Source: Escherichia phage vB_EcoM_SA21RB
Sequence record: OL960580
Length of the DNA stretch: 64,000 bases
Reading direction: 5' to 3' (one strand)
Below, in pieces: positions 2,458 through 9,693 of the stretch (position 1 is its first letter; the number at the start of each line of letters is the position of its first letter). Under the pieces are notes generated by a model. The model was not told the DNA's origin. It did not search any database and saw only the letters and a program-made list of their open reading frames with translations. The position numbers and the translations under genes were made by a program.

Positions 2458-4275
2458 CTATTGGCTCATCCATTCTTTACGAAGGTCAGCATTATCTCCC
2501 ATGAGCATTTCAAAAAGCTCTTTCCAGTTCTCAGGAAGTTTAACAACATCATATACTGGGTTTTGAATCATCTCACGATATTCAGATTTTTCCAAAGAGC
2601 CAAGTCCCTTAATATAACGGATGCTATGTTTAGGTAGAGCATCTTTGGCACTCTCATATTCAGTGACTGTATAAAACCATTCTTGTTTTTTACCGACCTG
2701 AGCGATGATTACAGGAGTTTTGACGAAGCGAATTCTTCCTTGTTCAAACAGTTCTGGCCAATTACTAAAAAATCCGAGCAGAGAAGGATAAATGCTCCCT
2801 AGACCATCATGGTCAGCATCAGTCATAATAGCAATATTATGATAATTCAAGTTTTCAGCCTTTTCACCAAGAACTAATCCAGTGATTGCGCAAATATCAA
2901 ACAGTTCTTTGTTTTTAAGCATATCAGCATATGACATACCCCAACTGTTGAGAACTTTACCACGCAATGGATAACCACCATGAAGTTCTTTATCACGAAC
3001 ATCAATAAGATATCCGATAGCAGAATCACCCTCAGTCAAGAAAAGAGTCGTGTCAGCATCTTTACCACAAAGATTCGCTTTAATATGTTTATGAACCTTA
3101 GCTTTAGAAGCCTTTTTAGCTGCTTTAGTTTCTGCTGCTTTTTCTGCCGCCAATTTACGAGCCAAGGCAGCTTCAATAATTGGCATTAAAATTGCTTCAT
3201 TATTTAAAATAGCGCGTGAAATCTTTTTAGCATCAAGCTGAATATGACTACGAATTTCACCAAATGGAGAAGTCAAACGCTCTTTAGTCTGAGAATCAAA
3301 TCGCATGTTTTTCATATCACGAACAAACATAACGATAGTCAAACATTCTTTAACACGTGCTTTAGTTACATCAATTTTGAACTTACGTTTGATTTGTGGA
3401 ATAAGGTCTTCACAAATATCATCCATAACACAGTCAATGTGATGACCACCATTCTTAGTATGAATGTTATTGACGTATGTTAATTGACGAAAACCATCCG
3501 GTGAACGACCAACCGCAATAGAACAATTTTCTTGTTCTTGAACAATAGCATGCTCATCATATTGGCGTGCATATTTCTTAAAATTACCCTGAACCTTTTT
3601 ACCGTTAAAGGTAAATTGAATATCAGGATAAACTACTGCAAGTGTCTGGAGACGATCTAGTGTAATGTCAAGATAAACCTGAGATAGCTCATTAGTTTCA
3701 AATGACATAAAATCAGGAATGAAAGTAACACGAGTTCCTTTCCATTTTCCAGGAATATCTTCCCATGATTTATTTTCCATGCCATTTGAACAACGAACTA
3801 CAATATTATTTTGACCGTCGCCAGTTTCACCGACAAACATCACAGAAAAAATGTTAGTTAAACTAGAACCAACACCGTTCATACCGCCAGTGACGCGTTC
3901 TTTGTCATCACCAAAGTTACCACCTGCTTTTGGAATAGTCCAAGCTGCAACAGGACCAGGAATTTCTTCACCAGTAGGTGTTTTAACCATCGCTTGTGGA
4001 ATACCACGACCGTTATCTTCAACTGTTACTTGATTGTTTTTAATAGTAACATTAATTTTATTCGCGAATTTAAACTTAGTACGAATACCTTCATCTACTG
4101 AGTTATCGATAATTTCATCAATAAGCTTAACAAGACCAGGTACATACTGAACACTTTCCCATTTACCAAACAGAAAGCGCTCATGCATTTCATTAGCAGA
4201 AGAACCAATGTACATGCCGCTACGCTTTTTGATATGTTCAATATCGCTCAGAATTTTAATTTCATTCTTAATCAT
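2458..4275 (-). CDS. 39: DNA topoisomerase II large subunit, single uninterrupted ORF covering the T4 gp39 and gp60 regions
   Basis: ORF track starts at GTG 4278; next codon is ATG 4275 with GAGGA SD, giving 605 aa; GyrB-like ATPase N-terminus; C-terminus NIAIMTDADHDGLGSIYPSLLGFF...RKEWMSQ matches my memory of T4 gp60. Confidence 0.9.
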   Translation of the reverse strand: MIKNEIKILSDIEHIKKRSGMYIGSSANEMHERFLFGKWESVQYVPGLVKLIDEIIDNSVDEGIRTKFKFANKINVTIKNNQVTVEDNGRGIPQAMVKTPTGEEIPGPVAAWTIPKAGGNFGDDKERVTGGMNGVGSSLTNIFSVMFVGETGDGQNNIVVRCSNGMENKSWEDIPGKWKGTRVTFIPDFMSFETNELSQVYLDITLDRLQTLAVVYPDIQFTFNGKKVQGNFKKYARQYDEHAIVQEQENCSIAVGRSPDGFRQLTYVNNIHTKNGGHHIDCVMDDICEDLIPQIKRKFKIDVTKARVKECLTIVMFVRDMKNMRFDSQTKERLTSPFGEIRSHIQLDAKKISRAILNNEAILMPIIEAALARKLAAEKAAETKAAKKASKAKVHKHIKANLCGKDADTTLFLTEGDSAIGYLIDVRDKELHGGYPLRGKVLNSWGMSYADMLKNKELFDICAITGLVLGEKAENLNYHNIAIMTDADHDGLGSIYPSLLGFFSNWPELFEQGRIRFVKTPVIIAQVGKKQEWFYTVTEYESAKDALPKHSIRYIKGLGSLEKSEYREMIQNPVYDVVKLPENWKELFEMLMGDNADLRKEWMSQ

Positions 4276-4302
4276 CACTTATCCTCGTTTGGTTTCGGGA
4301 AT

Positions 4303-4328
4303 ATTATACTCCGGTAATCATAAAGCTA
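4303..4328 (-). promoter_or_regulatory. possible middle-type promoter upstream of gene 39
   Basis: minus strand TAGCTTTA (MotA-box-like), 10 nt, AGTATAAT; about 25 nt upstream of the gene 39 ATG. Confidence 0.3.
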
Positions 4329-4345
4329 AAGGCCCGAAGGCCTTT
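4328..4345 (-). terminator. C(UUCG)G tetraloop hairpin after the lipoprotein gene
   Basis: minus-strand RNA GGCC-UUCG-GGCC immediately 3' of the stop at 4345; weak U tract. Confidence 0.4.
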
Positions 4346-4609: not shown

Positions 4610-4981
4610 TCACTCAAATTTAATGGCTTGAAGAAGACTAATAATTCTCAAGCGACTTCTTTCATCTTTAACCGTAAATGAAAGAGGGTCACCAGATTTC
4701 ATAGTGATAGTACATTCAAAATCAAAATCTTCAGGAACTTCTTCGAAGAAGTCAAATTCTTCGTCATAAATTAGAACATTACTCTGAAAACTGTGAAGAA
4801 TTTTTCCATCATTTCCAGATGCTGTACTAATCATTGTAACATTATGGCCTTTCATATCTTCAACGATAAATTCGCTTGTAGATATTACGGCATTAATAGA
4901 ACCATTCCTATAAATAGAAGAAAGTAAATATTTCTTTTCTTCACCTTCGCGAACACGATATTTCTTACCGATTTTAAACAT
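4610..4981 (-). CDS. hypothetical protein
   Basis: 123-aa ORF with ATG start, tightly tiled with neighbours. Confidence 0.5.
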   Translation of the reverse strand: MFKIGKKYRVREGEEKKYLLSSIYRNGSINAVISTSEFIVEDMKGHNVTMISTASGNDGKILHSFQSNVLIYDEEFDFFEEVPEDFDFECTITMKSGDPLSFTVKDERSRLRIISLLQAIKFE

Positions 4982-5162: not shown

Positions 5163-5582
5163 TTATTCCTTAAAGTGTGCTTTCAACATCTGATACAAGG
5201 ACCATGCCTGTTCATTATTTTCAATAGTAACTTTCATGACAGGAAATGCTGTGAAATCTTCTATTTGTTCTTGCTCTTCCTGCTCTTGCTCTTCAGCTGC
5301 CTGGTATGGATTTTCAACTTCATCAAAGAACCCAGCTTCGTTAGTAGAGAGCCAGATAAAGTTTTCGTCAAGGATATCACCATGTTTTGCATATCCAATT
5401 GTGCCAGTAAATGACATAATTTTAGTAGGACGACCAAGATGGTCAGCATCTAAAATTTTAAAAGGTTCCATACCTAAACGTCGTGCATAGATTCCGTTAT
5501 CAGTATGGTCTTTAATAAAATTTTCTTGAGCCTGTTTATTTTTAAATTGATACCATTTATTAACTTCAAATTTAATAGCCAT
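5163..5582 (-). CDS. hypothetical acidic protein
   Basis: 139-aa ORF with ATG start; [10 protein letters not shown] acidic tract. Confidence 0.55.
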
Positions 5583-5797
5583 TAATAAATTTCCTTCCAG
5601 TAAGTTGTACCGTCTTCAGTGATTTCACGGAATACACCGTAAATTGGCTGTTTATCACCAACCTTTTCATAAACATAAACCGAAGTCAAGTGAGTAAACT
5701 TAATGGTGTGTTCCTTTTGAACCACTACCAAATCTGGATCGAATAATACATCTTCAAATTCGTCATTAGTGCAATTCTGAACAGTTTTACGTTTCAT
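5582..5797 (-). CDS. hypothetical protein
   Basis: 71-aa ORF with ATG start; stop/start abuts the neighbour. Confidence 0.5.
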
Positions 5798-5810
5798 TAC
5801 AATTTCCTCA

Positions 5811-6080
5811 TTAATTGAACAGTGGAGCGATGCGTTTCAGAAGAGTAGCAGCACCTTTGGCGAATTTTACATCATGAAAAACAGTTTCTTCTTCCGTTAC
5901 AACACGAGCTTTAATGTTTTCACAATCCCAATTTTTACGAACAATCTTCAAAAGCTGCAGTAAATCTTTACATTCAGCAATATCGATAACACATCCACGA
6001 GAATCTTCCATTATCGCACGATAACCGTAAGCCATACCATAATCGTTGAAAGACTGTTCGATGATAATTAAGTTTTCCAT
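5811..6080 (-). CDS. hypothetical protein
   Basis: ORF track start is TTG 6092; ATG at 6080 with GGAG SD gives 89 aa; preceded by a promoter-leader cassette. Confidence 0.5.
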   Translation of the reverse strand: MENLIIIEQSFNDYGMAYGYRAIMEDSRGCVIDIAECKDLLQLLKIVRKNWDCENIKARVVTEEETVFHDVKFAKGAATLLKRIAPLFN

Positions 6081-6187
6081 TTTATTCTCCAAGTTGTTTT
6101 CTGTATCAGTAGTTGATATTGATATAGTACCATAATCAACTACCGATGTATATAGTTTTATGAAAAAATTTTAAACTTTATGCAAAT

Positions 6188-6607
6188 TTATGCTAAAGCT
6201 GCTTCGCACCATTTTTTAATTTGGAATTCAGGAACTACCATGAACTGGCCTGCAAAAACAATATTGTAGAGCTTGACGCCATCTTCTACCCAACGGTCCG
6301 AAATAAAACCAGCGACTTGATTCGTTGTCCATGGAGTTCCATCTGTTGCCGCCGCAATTGTGAATTTATGGTCTTTTACAACTAAAACTGAAGAACAAAG
6401 TTTCCATTTAAATGCGCTTTCTTCTGGCTCAATGAACTGGCTTGAGACATAACCAATGTTACCATCAGCGTCACGAACTTTAACCTCGTTACGACCAAAA
6501 ACTGGATCACTCACAGAAAGAACTTCAACCAGCTTTCCTGCAACTTTAGAACGAGAAGCAACGGATACATATACGTAATCACCAGTAGAGAGATTTACAA
6601 TATTCAT
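6188..6607 (-). CDS. hypothetical protein, paralogue family member A
   Basis: 139 aa; N-terminus and C-terminal motif GFISDRWVEDGVKLYNIVFAGQF shared with the next two genes. Confidence 0.6.
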   Translation of the reverse strand: MNIVNLSTGDYVYVSVASRSKVAGKLVEVLSVSDPVFGRNEVKVRDADGNIGYVSSQFIEPEESAFKWKLCSSVLVVKDHKFTIAAATDGTPWTTNQVAGFISDRWVEDGVKLYNIVFAGQFMVVPEFQIKKWCEAALA

Positions 6608-6616
6608 AATAATTCC

Positions 6617-7093
6617 TTAAGCTTTACGAGGAGAAGCATAACGAGTGATTTCAGATTCTTCAACAACCCGGAAGTCACCTAAAAATACAATATTGTATAG
6701 CTTTTTACCGTCTTCAATCCATTGGTCTGTAATGAAGCCACACATCCTATCAGTTTTACTTGGACCAGCGAAATCATCAATATAATCGAATTTTTCAGCA
6801 GTTACAAATTCAACGCCTTTGCACAATGGCCATTTAAATTGTGCATTAGGCTTAGTGGATTCAACTTCTTTAACAGAAGCAAAATGAGCGCTAACACGAG
6901 TTTCCAGAAATTTAGGACTTACGTAAGCGTACTGAGTTTCAATTTTTCCAGAACTAGGAATGATTCGAACTTTAACTTCTTTAACACGACCAGTACCATT
7001 AGTACGAAGTCCTACCACTTCAACTAGACGACCTGCAGCTTTAGAACGGGATTTATCAGATACACGAGCAATTTCACCAATATTAATAATCAT
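6617..7093 (-). CDS. hypothetical protein, paralogue family member B
   Basis: 158 aa; ...SRSKAAGRLVEV and GFITDQWIEDGKKLYNIVFLGDF motifs. Confidence 0.6.
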   Translation of the reverse strand: MIINIGEIARVSDKSRSKAAGRLVEVVGLRTNGTGRVKEVKVRIIPSSGKIETQYAYVSPKFLETRVSAHFASVKEVESTKPNAQFKWPLCKGVEFVTAEKFDYIDDFAGPSKTDRMCGFITDQWIEDGKKLYNIVFLGDFRVVEESEITRYASPRKA

Positions 7094-7137
7094 AGTTATC
7101 TCTCACTTGTTAAAAAGATTTTATACTCCGCGGGACC

Positions 7138-7167
7138 ATTATACTCTGGTCCCAAGAGTTTGTAAAC
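7138..7167 (-). promoter_or_regulatory. T4-type early promoter
   Basis: minus strand GTTTAC, 18 nt, TATAAT in the gap between paralogues B and C. Confidence 0.5.
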
Positions 7168-7169
7168 TA

Positions 7170-7712
7170 TTAATTTAAAATAGCTACCACAGCACTACGA
7201 GGTACTACACTAAAATCACCTGCATGAACAACGTTCAGAAGTTCAACACTATCTTCAACCCACTGGTCTGTTACCCAACCACAGACCGAAATAAATGGGG
7301 TCTTGATAGCTACAGCACGAGTTAGAAGGTCGGTAGGGTCTTGTTCTTCAACTTCTTGGAACAGGATGAACTCTGCTTCATAAACCAGGATTTTCTCCAT
7401 TTTGTTATTGTCTAAACGACGACCGTGGACAATATAAGATTTAGTAAACCATTTACTTTTTTCAAAGTCTTCAACGGTAAATTCGCCTTCGCCAAAAACA
7501 TCAGTCAAAGTTTTATGGCCGGAAATCAAGGCATTAGTTTTAATTTCAGGTTCAACCAGTTTGTAGGTTTTGCCGATTTCAATAGCAGTAGTCATAGTAG
7601 GTTCCTTAATTTCCAGTGGTTTAACAGGGCATACATAAGTGCTTACAACATCAAAATCAATCAGTTTAGCTACCGGATTTGGTGTGTATTCAGGATTATA
7701 ATTAAATTTCAT
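7170..7712 (-). CDS. hypothetical protein, paralogue family member C
   Basis: 180 aa; C-terminal GWVTDQWVEDSVELLNVVHAGDF motif. Confidence 0.6.
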   Translation of the reverse strand: MKFNYNPEYTPNPVAKLIDFDVVSTYVCPVKPLEIKEPTMTTAIEIGKTYKLVEPEIKTNALISGHKTLTDVFGEGEFTVEDFEKSKWFTKSYIVHGRRLDNNKMEKILVYEAEFILFQEVEEQDPTDLLTRAVAIKTPFISVCGWVTDQWVEDSVELLNVVHAGDFSVVPRSAVVAILN

Positions 7713-7714
7713 AT

Positions 7715-8218
7715 TTATCTCATTTCAATAAAATCTACGAGTTCAGCATGCGATTTACGGAACATTACTTGGTGTCCGCCAATTATAACTTCATCTTCAG
7801 GAACTTCGTATACAGCGAGATAAAATCCTTTGGAAGATAATTCTTCACGCTCTTCTCGAGTAAACCATCTCATCATATCATATTCACTAGCGAAAGCAAA
7901 ATGATAAAGAGCTATAAACCATCCTGGAATATAGTGATCTACGCCTACATATTCCTCTTTCTCAAATTTAGTATTAATTGCTATATTAGCATTTTTAACT
8001 AATAATTTGTCTTCGCGCGGAAGAGGAATTCTTTTGTTATCATTACTATGATGTGTAAAATTAGGTCTATCATAACCTACGTGTAATAACCACTCTTCGC
8101 TCCATGAATCTATTATACTCCTGTATGGCGTTATTTGAACACAAAGATTTCGACGTATTGTTATAGCATCTTCACAATTAAGAATACTAAACGATGATTC
8201 AACACGATAAATTTTCAT
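7715..8218 (-). CDS. MotB-like protein (by position and size)
   Basis: ORF track extends to 8365 through the dexA 3' end and promoter; ATG at 8218 with GAGG SD gives 167 aa MKIYRVESS... Confidence 0.5.
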   Translation of the reverse strand: MKIYRVESSFSILNCEDAITIRRNLCVQITPYRSIIDSWSEEWLLHVGYDRPNFTHHSNDNKRIPLPREDKLLVKNANIAINTKFEKEEYVGVDHYIPGWFIALYHFAFASEYDMMRWFTREEREELSSKGFYLAVYEVPEDEVIIGGHQVMFRKSHAELVDFIEMR

Positions 8219-8244
8219 TTTATTATCCTCAGTAGCTATGGTTG

Positions 8245-8276
8245 TTATAATACCACAACTAACCGAGGAAGTAAAC
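8245..8276 (-). promoter_or_regulatory. T4-type early promoter
   Basis: minus strand GTTTAC, 18 nt, TATTAT between the dexA stop and the 8218 start. Confidence 0.5.
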
Positions 8277-8282
8277 AACTTT

Positions 8283-8966
8283 TTATCGTTTTGTTGGAAG
8301 AGAAAGAGGATCGCACTCTTCCTCTGACGGAGCATCTTCAAGACCCATAGCATATCGCAAAGCATACTTCATCATCAGGATGTCTTTCGCACAGTCATGA
8401 ATAGAATCATGTGCAACGAATCCATCTAAAGTTCCCTTTGGAAGAGGACACGTGGTCATATCACGAACAAGCAGAAGTGCTTCAATTCTGGTACGAATAT
8501 CACGTTGATTCCAGAATTTACATGGTTCTAACTTAAATGTGTCAAGTTCATTCTCGGAAACGCCGTTAAGACGTTGAATATCACGAATGAGATCAACTAA
8601 AATTGGAAAATCAAACGACATTCCACGGCACCAGCCCTGAGATTTCCAAGGATCGATATTATGCGCATTGATGTAATCATTAAATTTTGCAATACCATCG
8701 ATAGTGCTTACATCTTCATCTGATGGCGCAATATTTTTTCGAGCTTCAGGAGATTGATTTTTCCACCATTCGATAGTGCTTTTAGTAAAAAGACGATGTC
8801 CTTTTTGGCTTTTTAAATCAAACTTGATTTTAATGCCGCGTGAAACTAATTCATCAAAGGATTCAACTACTTCTGGGTTAGGGTCAAAGGCAATAACAGC
8901 TAAGTCAATAACAGCTGCCTTTTCACCGCTTCCCATTGTTTCAAAATCTATAATAAAATCAAACAT
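8283..8966 (-). CDS. dexA: exonuclease A (DnaQ-like 3'-5' exonuclease)
   Basis: 227 aa with ATG start; DFETMG exonuclease motif; length and position next to dda as in T4. Confidence 0.85.
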   Translation of the reverse strand: MFDFIIDFETMGSGEKAAVIDLAVIAFDPNPEVVESFDELVSRGIKIKFDLKSQKGHRLFTKSTIEWWKNQSPEARKNIAPSDEDVSTIDGIAKFNDYINAHNIDPWKSQGWCRGMSFDFPILVDLIRDIQRLNGVSENELDTFKLEPCKFWNQRDIRTRIEALLLVRDMTTCPLPKGTLDGFVAHDSIHDCAKDILMMKYALRYAMGLEDAPSEEECDPLSLPTKR

Positions 8967-9208
8967 TAAATTTTCCTCGCTAAATCGCGAATTTGACCTA
9001 CAGTATAATCTTGGATATAAACTTTATTAATGGGCTCATCAATAAATTTTGCCATAGATTCAATATCTTTTTGTATCTCTTCAAGACTGTATACTATCTT
9101 TAAAGCTTTTTCGCGAATAGTAACATTATCAGGTCCTGAATTTTCTTGAATGACAGCTTTAACATTTGTCATAAGAGATTTAAACTGCTGCAAACTTAAT
9201 TCAATCAT
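8966..9208 (-). CDS. small hypothetical protein (paralogue of 9201..9446)
   Basis: ORF track start is GTG 9241; ATG at 9208 with AAGGCGG SD gives 80 aa. Confidence 0.45.
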   Translation of the reverse strand: MIELSLQQFKSLMTNVKAVIQENSGPDNVTIREKALKIVYSLEEIQKDIESMAKFIDEPINKVYIQDYTVGQIRDLARKI

Positions 9209-9446
9209 TAATAACCGCCTTATAAAGATGGCTAATTTCACCTAAAACATAATCACTGATTGTAACAGTTTTCACTTCGCCGCAAAAGAATTCTAATGCA
9301 ATCAAATCTCGTTCAATTTCTTCCAATTGAAGCATTAACTTGCCTGATTCAATTTTTACATTTGTACGATTTTTACTATAAGCTATTTCATAAATTTCAC
9401 TCACTTTATCTTGAAGCAGATAAAACTGGTCTTTAGTTATTTCCAC
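9201..9446 (-). CDS. small hypothetical protein (paralogue of 8966..9208)
   Basis: ORF track start is TTG 9461; GTG at 9446 preceded by GAGGAAG SD gives 81 aa; shared LEEI(Q/E)(K/R)D...Y..G(Q/E)I pattern. Confidence 0.45.
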   Translation of the reverse strand: MEITKDQFYLLQDKVSEIYEIAYSKNRTNVKIESGKLMLQLEEIERDLIALEFFCGEVKTVTISDYVLGEISHLYKAVIND

Positions 9447-9693
9447 GAATAGCTTCCTCAAATTTAATCAACAGCTTACAGACACTTTCATCTAATGTAA
9501 TTACCGTGTCTGTGTTACTATGATATGATTGTTTTTCAATTCGTTTAATTGCTAGTATAGTATCACTTATAAGATTAAGCTTATAAAGGAGCTCAGCTCC
9601 TGTTACCATAACACTGAGGTTATCTTGCTTATCAGTATGCTTCTTTATACCATCTATTAGACGATTTAAATATTTTGAATTGATGTTAATCAT
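9433..9693 (-). CDS. small hypothetical protein
   Basis: 86 aa; ATG with GAGGA SD. Confidence 0.5.
   Translation of the reverse strand: MININSKYLNRLIDGIKKHTDKQDNLSVMVTGAELLYKLNLISDTILAIKRIEKQSYHSNTDTVITLDESVCKLLIKFEEAIRGNN

Follow-up and report, generated by a model that had tools for sequence, protein, structure and literature searches.

Three adjacent genes of Escherichia phage vB_EcoM_SA21RB, here called ORF1, ORF2 and ORF3 and encoding proteins of 139, 158 and 180 amino acids (aa), lie side by side on the minus strand of a 64,000-nucleotide stretch of sequence record OL960580 (hereafter, the window) and raise the question of why neighboring open reading frames (ORFs) end in the same protein motif. 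The initial annotation, whose coordinates and lengths for the three genes were confirmed, described them as a triplicated family with conserved C-termini and divergent N-terminal halves, and proposed that they share an interaction module of variable specificity. The observation is correct and already in the literature: the genes belong to the known MotB/MotB-like/MotB.1 family of small early proteins of T4-like phages. The assignment of ORF1 as a MotB paralog, ORF2 as MotB and ORF3 as MotB.1 is almost certain, given the 99.1% DNA identity of window positions 5500-8500 to the Escherichia phage PP01, which is a T2-like Tequatrovirus, and the annotation of that phage, the scores against the Pfam family motB (PF17613), the PHROG assignments, and the synteny with T4 and RB69. 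The same segment is 85-95% identical to several hundred further T-even phages, and the window is, to judge by these identities, that of a T2/PP01-like Tequatrovirus. The order of the MotB cluster within the cef-dexA segment is the same as in PP01 and T4 and is also syntenic with RB69.

The shared C-terminal motif was borne out by BLASTP, Pfam, hhalign and a hidden Markov model (HMM) built from the motif. ORF1 and ORF2 align from end to end with 41% identity (BLASTP, E=1e-28), the N-terminal element SRSKxAGxLVEV reported for both lies inside this full-length alignment, and a multiple alignment of the two with T4 MotB contains 47 invariant columns. ORF3 aligns with ORF1 and ORF2 over the last ~35 residues only, at 52-53% identity (BLASTP, E=5e-10 and 5e-11, respectively). 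All three proteins score above the PF17613 gathering score of 25 bits (Table 1), with ORF3 reaching 32.5 bits by a match restricted to residues 142-175. Comparison of 73 MotB-type with 41 MotB.1-type sequences using hhalign aligned 37 columns with 98% probability (E=2e-13) and revealed no homology between the two families past this 37-column module; co-alignment of the N-domains by MAFFT was rejected as evidence of homology because hhalign gave the 37-column match alone. When run over all stop-to-stop segments in the six frames of the window, the motif HMM matched exactly three places (E~1e-23 to 2e-25) and no fourth copy of the module, the next best match having E=0.32. The module thus delimited comprises ~37 residues with the consensus [G]-[FW]-[IV]-[TS]-D-[QR]-W-[IV]-E-D-...-L-x-N-[IV]-V-x-x-G-x-F-x-V-V, common to all three proteins, and the similarity, on whose statistical support the earlier proposal had been made to depend, is secure. 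The contrast between conserved C-termini and divergent N-halves holds for ORF3 compared with ORF1 and ORF2, but not for ORF1 compared with ORF2; the N-halves of the latter two are not divergent because these proteins are full-length paralogs with the same layout, namely, a KOW-like N-domain carrying the SRSKxAG element followed by a MotB-type C-terminal domain.

The relationships among the three genes are old. The module copies are 52-63% identical at the DNA level, with the longest exact runs spanning 6-11 nucleotides (nt), and of the 17-21 identical module residues in each pair, 7-11 are encoded by different codons. Such low DNA identity combined with codon differences implies conservation at the protein level, and, to judge by this comparison, the three genes are old paralogs under protein-level selection rather than recent duplicates or conversion tracts; the possibility of recent gene conversion or a repeat-driven artefact was rejected by the codon-level comparison of the module copies. 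The proposed triplication stands inasmuch as the cluster contains three relatives, but the single event that the term implies does not, the module DNA identity pointing instead to two old events.

ORF2, which is named motB in the PP01 annotation and matches phrog_1671 with E=2e-66, is the MotB ortholog by these criteria of homology. It shares with T4 MotB a basic character (isoelectric point, pI, 9.2), the location between cef and motB.1, and an identical early promoter; given the end-to-end Pfam match and 49% identity, it can be regarded as a diverged allele of T4 MotB. The positive charge of ORF2 is concentrated in the N-domain (residues 1-64, net charge +6, pI 10.2). The sections of Patterson-West et al. 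2021 (PMC7827196) that deal with T4 MotB, a protein also treated in Patterson-West et al. 2018, describe an early protein of high abundance whose binding to DNA is tight and non-specific, in the manner of a nucleoid-associated protein, and which alters the footprints of H-NS on DNA and de-represses H-NS-silenced host genes, with ~75 host genes up-regulated, one third of these in the H-NS regulon. In the same sections, MotB is reported to co-purify with H-NS and StpA in a DNA-dependent fashion, to be toxic to E. coli when overexpressed and to provide a fitness benefit to the phage. These experimental properties are described there for T4 MotB only.

ORF1 is orthologous to PP01_010, which is annotated as a "MotB-like transcriptional regulator", and to RB51ORF010 and RB69ORF010c, which are also 139 aa long, are located directly downstream of motB, show no substantive difference from ORF1, and are known from sequence alone. 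The two-domain layout of ORF1 is likewise T4 MotB-like, but the protein, which is acidic (pI 5.4), shares no more than ~37-41% identity with MotB proteins and has no counterpart of the disordered ~20-residue linker seen in MotB. With ORF1 being acidic, linker-less and diverged, the DNA-binding behavior of T4 MotB is not simply transferable to it. T4 has motB and motB.1 but lacks both ORF1 and the adjoining 93-aa ORF, whereas the three members of the family are all present in RB69, where RB69ORF010c occupies the position of ORF1. A tblastn search with ORF1 gave a bimodal result, the best match being at least 80% identical in 207 of 773 phage records and less than 60% identical in the other 566. 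The 207 records contain intact ORF1 orthologs with 84-100% identity from Tequatrovirus and Mosigvirus, and in the 566 records, the best match to ORF1 is MotB itself. Judging from this distribution, the ORF1 lineage is old and separately conserved and has lost the positive charge.

To compare the number of module copies across T-even phages, the 52 C-terminal residues of ORF2 served as a tblastn query, and 784 phage records together yielded 1679 matching places. Of 60 records sampled at even intervals, most (~41) had two such places, 15 had three and four had one. Taken together with the bimodal ORF1 search, this sample suggests that the three-gene arrangement is present in roughly a quarter of the MotB-bearing T-even genomes.

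ORF3, located between motB.2 and motB, is acidic (pI 4.8) and begins with a 39-aa N-terminal extension; a GoF/LSm-like N-domain follows, which a DPTDLL linker joins to the shared C-terminal module. The MotB two-domain layout (Category 1) is absent from this protein, the N-domain of which belongs to the GoF-related family phrog_622; this family was matched by the goF product of the window (E=1.5e-40), by the product of the unnamed ORF at 4610-4981 (E=2.7e-29) and by the isolated ORF3 N-domain (Table 1). Kim et al. 2025 (PMC12152347), in the part concerned with these proteins, describe the N-domains of GoF, of MotB.1 and of Frd.2 as one family, whose fold is LSm-like (SH3-like); GoF and Frd.2, T4 early proteins (phrog_622/PF03197), share this N-domain family, a GoF-related five-stranded small beta-barrel, with ORF3 but lack the MotB C-terminal module. 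By its domain matches, ORF3 is a chimera of the two paralog families of the island, combining a GoF-type N-domain with a MotB-type C-terminal module. This second family is interleaved with the first in the same island, being represented by the 123-aa ORF, goF and the ORF3 N-domain, all assigned to phrog_622. ORF3 resembles T4 MotB.1 in its position upstream of motB and downstream of motB.2, the GoF/Frd.2-related N-domain, the DPTDLL linker and the module, but it is only ~35% identical to T4 MotB.1 (Categories 2-4 of PMC7827196), and its extension with the sequence DFDVVSTY is not found in T4.

Table 1. Coordinates of the MotB family genes, their domains and the neighboring features in the window.
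Feature	Coordinates	Strand	Evidence or remark
ORF1, 139 aa, second full-length MotB paralog	6188..6607	-	PF17613 72.1 bits; phrog_1671 E=9.8e-51
KOW-like N-domain of ORF1	6419-6607	-	
C-terminal module, ORF1 residues 96-132	6212..6322	-	motif HMM 79.3 bits for the ORF, 77.0 bits for the best match
ORF2, 158 aa, motB ortholog	6617..7093	-	PF17613 150 bits over model positions 1-158 of 162
KOW-like N-domain of ORF2 with SRSKAAGRLVEV element	6902..7093	-	
C-terminal module, ORF2 residues 115-151: DRMCGFITDQWIEDGKKLYNIVFLGDFRVVEESEITR	6641..6751	-	hhalign columns; motif HMM 83.9 bits
ORF3, 180 aa, motB.1, long-form subtype	7170..7712	-	phrog_2333 E=4.9e-83, residues 1-180
N-terminal extension, ORF3 residues 1-39	7596..7712	-	predicted disordered, pLDDT 32-34
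DFDVVSTY linear motif, ORF3 residues 19-26	7635-7658	-	
GoF/Frd.2-type (LSm/SH3-like) N-domain, ORF3 residues 44-125	7338..7583	-	phrog_622 E=1.7e-6
C-terminal module, ORF3 residues 141-177: ISVCGWVTDQWVEDSVELLNVVHAGDFSVVPRSAVVA	7182..7292	-	hhalign; motif HMM 81.5 bits
Early-type sigma-70 promoter (G)TTTACA-17-TATAAT	7138..7166	-	11/12 consensus, directly after the ORF3 stop codon
Hairpin GGGACCA-GAGTATAA-TGGTCCC	7132..7153	-	7-bp G+C-rich stem; encloses the -10 TATAAT
Gene 39	2458-4278	-	single 606-aa ORF, fused 60+39 topoisomerase subunit
Unnamed 123-aa ORF	4610-4981	-	
goF	5163-5582	-	
cef	5582-5797	-	
93-aa ORF	5811-6092	-	phrog_3720, function unknown; between cef and ORF1
motB.2	7715-8218	-	
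dexA	8283-8966	-	

The structures of ORF2 and ORF3 were predicted with AlphaFold2. The ORF2 model (73-sequence alignment; mean predicted local distance difference test score, pLDDT, 80) contains two beta domains joined by a disordered linker: the strands of the N-terminal domain extend to residue 58, the linker spans residues 67-83 (pLDDT <50), and a five-strand C-terminal domain occupies residues 93-152. In the ORF3 model (41 sequences; pLDDT 65), residues 1-41 are disordered (<50), followed by the N-domain (49-120) and a five-strand C-terminal domain (133-179). In both models, the 37 shared residues make up the final three to four strands, at 110-127, 130-137, 140-145 and 149-152 in ORF2 and at 142-153, 156-163, 166-171 and 175-179 in ORF3; as modeled, the module of 3-4 strands is the conserved core within a small beta domain at the C-terminus. 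The ORF2 model agrees with the published assignment of the MotB N-domain as KOW-like, and both models neither support nor exclude the published OB-fold assignment of the C-terminal domain. Sequence and profile searches yielded no significant match to the PDB for either family, and a fold search of the viral BFVD database retrieved essentially family members and uncharacterised phage proteins alone; small beta-barrels of the KOW, Tudor and SH3-like kinds (NusG, Spt5, the 53BP1 tandem Tudor) are among the closest known systems.

The three C-terminal domains carry net charges of -2, +1 and -3, and, across the family, 21 of 26 representatives have a pI below 7. MotB is the only basic member of the cluster, with the module and the other two paralogs being acidic, a small addition to the known picture. 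When 1.84 billion representative proteins were searched with a profile built from the three C-terminal domains, no more than 27 clusters were matched, one of which is a spurious repeat protein. In every true member (43-251 aa), the module is located at the extreme C-terminus, and the search showed it to be confined to the C-terminus of small Tevenvirinae-type proteins. Three domain combinations were observed: a MotB-type C-terminal domain occurs with KOW-like N-domains, and a MotB.1-type one is preceded either by a KOW-like N-domain (8 clusters) or by one or two N-domains of the GoF-like kind. This mixing reinforces, at the level of the family, the modular arrangement seen in ORF3 relative to ORF1 and ORF2. 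Also among these proteins is a 43-aa metagenomic sequence (P0265), in which the MotB.1 module, reduced to its last ~28 residues, directly follows the first 13 residues of MotB.2 (MKIYRVESSFSIL..), an arrangement implying a deletion that took out most of motB.2 and motB.1.

Ten of the 26 representatives carry a linear motif, D-x-D-[VIL]-x-x-x-Y (typically DTDVASMY), in a disordered inter-domain linker or at an N-terminus, compared to a roughly estimated chance rate of ~0.006 matches per protein. The motif is usually located 15-20 residues before the DPTDLL linker (the representatives that contain it include P0246, P0253-P0255, P0259, P0260 and P0263), and no description of it was found in the sections consulted of PMC7827196 or PMC12152347. 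The DFDVVSTY sequence in the extension of ORF3 is an instance of this motif and bears on where the translation of this gene begins. The PP01 GenBank record starts motB.1 at an internal ATG at 7595 (7170-7595, 141 aa), which is preceded 7 nt upstream by a strong ribosome-binding site (RBS), AAGGA; the ATG at 7712, 2 nt past the motB.2 stop codon, has a weak GAGA alone upstream. The long form is favored by most other annotations, with more than 100 homologous clusters among the matches listed (176-183 aa, aligned over 100% of the query), and the extension is conserved in Dhakavirus IME08, a member of a different genus, and in Yersinia phage PYps35T. It differs from that of IME08 at 7 of 117 nt, affecting 4 codons synonymously and 3 non-synonymously, too few substitutions for a codon-position test. 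What argues for translation of the extension is instead that its DxDVxSxY motif recurs within other members of the family. The 180-aa reading of ORF3 is accordingly given as probable, and a second, shorter product from 7595 is possible.

The early promoter noted between the second and third genes was borne out as an 11/12 match to the consensus (Table 1). No other sigma-70-like site in the 2.7 kb scanned (5700-8400) matches as well, the stretch that contains it (GTTTACAAACTCTTGGGACCAGAGTATAATGGTCCC) is the same base for base in T4 (100%), and its presence at 7166-7138 fits the early class of motB, which is listed as an early gene in the relevant section of PMC7827196. The hairpin that overlaps the promoter is also conserved base for base in T4, with a predicted RNA folding energy of -24.4 kcal/mol for the intergenic region, and may act either on the upstream transcript, as an RNA 3'-end or stability element, or on the promoter, as a regulator; a prediction of intrinsic terminators within 5700-8400 gave none. 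ORF1 starts 9 nt past the ORF2 stop codon and has its own RBS (AAGGA, 7 nt 5' of the ATG), from which we infer that ORF2 and ORF1 probably form one early transcription unit.

The annotated reference records of T4 and RB69 contain truncated MotB.1 proteins. In the T4 reference (AF158101/NC_000866), an extra G inside the motB.1 motif changes ATTGAAGAT to ATTGGAAGAT (NC_000866 7261-7340, equivalent to window positions 7182-7292; 4262-4341 of the T4 stretch compared) and ends the annotated protein at 119 aa (...GWVTDQWIGRWR and a stop codon), with the rest of the motif, EDGVELLNVVHAGEYSVVPRSAVVAILN followed by its stop codon, intact in the next frame. The 13 other T4, T4T and RB55/RB59 records among the matches listed all show a one-base gap in this 80-nt stretch and lack the extra G, and the re-sequenced T4 genome (MT984581) annotates a 143-aa MotB.1. 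Given that the re-sequenced records lack the extra G, the truncation is specific to the reference record, and the idea that it reflects a biological inactivation of T4 MotB.1 was rejected because every re-sequenced T4 record is free of it. The size of 13.8 kDa quoted for T4 MotB.1 in the part of the published work that gives it corresponds to the truncated protein. Likewise, motB.1 of RB69 (AY303349) is split by two frameshifts in the record (2480-2650 of the RB69 stretch compared), so that the "29-aa peptide" RB69ORF012c (Category 3 of PMC7827196) is the C-terminal tail of motB.1 and not a separate mini-gene; an intact 164-aa MotB.1 of the RB69 type exists (P0253).

Much of the picture of this family had been drawn before. 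In the sections of PMC7827196 devoted to homologs, 102 phage MotB homologs were aligned, the common C-terminal domain of MotB and MotB.1 with differing N-domains was reported, and extra copies were described in some phages, for example, two motB genes, one motB.1 and one 29-aa peptide in RB69. Table S4 of that paper includes RB51ORF010, Sf24_gp134 and RB69ORF010c, all of which are orthologs of ORF1 from close relatives of the window. The additions made here are the acidic character of the module and of the two paralogs other than MotB, the rarity of the module (27 clusters, C-terminal only), the combination of KOW-like domains with the MotB.1-type module, and the frameshifts in the records.

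What the module does can be approached through the distribution of charge and the mosaic architectures. The basic KOW-like N-domain, rather than the shared module, would be the main DNA-binding determinant of MotB, and the acidic conserved C-terminal module, with an exposed TDQW-x-ED turn, would serve as a common element for protein contact or for self-association and oligomerisation. The exchangeable N-domains (basic KOW, acidic KOW and LSm-like) would then confer differing specificity for nucleic acids or partners. In this scheme, the early promoter at 7166-7138 would transcribe ORF2 and ORF1, and ORF3 would be transcribed from further upstream. The interaction module of variable specificity proposed at the outset is consistent with the charge data. 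Taken as a whole, a MotB family cluster with such a division of labor is the explanation that we favor and consider reasonably probable; the division of labor between the N-domains and the module is, by itself, a tentative proposal that could well be wrong. One could further speculate that the acidic invariant module is a handle for docking or hetero-oligomerisation, through which ORF1 and MotB.1 would pair with DNA-bound MotB or compete for one host target and so allow a tunable remodeling of H-NS-coated DNA by a set of proteins that do not act independently, with the D-x-D-V-x-S-M-Y linker peptide as a second short binding motif of the family, hitherto unrecognized, but this elaboration we regard as improbable.

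Several observations weigh against the proposed division of labor. Net charge stands in only crudely for DNA binding, confidence in the ORF3 model is no more than moderate (pLDDT 65), and the contact role of the module is deduced from sequences rather than from an experiment or a multimer model. In the pertinent section of PMC7827196, repeated attempts to demonstrate a DNA-independent contact between MotB and H-NS are reported to have failed; the parts of PMC12152347 on MotB.1 report that deletion of T4 motB.1 has no laboratory phenotype and that AlphaFold3 produced no confident MotB.1 homomultimers. Furthermore, the MotB C-terminal domain is predicted in PMC7827196 to adopt a cold-shock-type OB fold and possibly to bind DNA itself. 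The main alternative, built on that prediction, is that the C-terminal module is itself a nucleic-acid-binding domain (OB-fold/cold-shock-like) and that the paralogs differ in a second, N-terminal nucleic-acid-binding barrel, which we hold to be rather unlikely. The lack of ORF1 in T4, the same motB.1 deletion result and the dispensability of the region that carries the motB family genes (stated in PMC7827196 where this region is discussed) would also fit the notion that ORF1, ORF3 or both are decaying, functionless duplicates in which the motif was kept by recent duplication or gene conversion. That notion is highly improbable and largely refuted by the intact ORF1 orthologs in the 207 records from two genera and the intact ORF3-type proteins in more than 100 clusters among the matches listed, by the many synonymous differences, short exact runs and low DNA identity of the module copies, which argue against recent conversion, and by the restriction of the apparent T4 and RB69 truncations to old reference records. 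Finally, the shortness of the shared stretch, and nothing else, speaks for unrelated small AT-rich phage ORFs that resemble each other by chance or by composition, an explanation with a negligible likelihood in view of E-values from 5e-10 to 1e-28, curated Pfam thresholds that were passed, the hhalign result, and the lack of any other six-frame match in the window.

The description of the locus as a 39-dexA accessory island fits the gene order, in which the minus strand carries every gene of the region: gene 39, 39.1, the unnamed ORF, 39.2, goF, cef, the 93-aa ORF, ORF1, ORF2, ORF3, motB.2, dexA and dda (Table 1). Gene 39 is fused in the window and in RB69, whereas it is split in T4. As mechanically predicted, the motB.2 ORF has its start at 8365 (ATG; 216 aa) and reaches into the 3' end of dexA, whereas 8218 is the start used in annotated relatives (167 aa); a promoter-like site, TTTACT-17-TATTAT, was noticed at 8275-8247 and is weak. 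The interval between dexA and dda (8966-9693) contains three small tandem ORFs. The first two, equivalent to dexA.1 and dexA.2, are paralogs that share 25% identity across 79 aa (E=5e-8); PP01 and T4 both lack the third (86 aa, 9433-9693), whose similarity to the other two is not significant (E=0.5). Yersinia phage PYps35T also carries three small ORFs at this place, a likeness in number and position.

The frameshifted 119-aa MotB.1 and the 29-aa peptide do not represent separate protein classes, which matters for any constructs that are based on the reference annotation. About one quarter of these phages keep an acidic second MotB in addition to MotB.1, and the reason for this would be worth knowing. 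MotB is among the few phage proteins shown to interfere with H-NS silencing by binding DNA and not by binding H-NS, and the roles of its domains would help to explain how the nucleoid of the host is reorganized by T-even phages during the first minutes of an infection.

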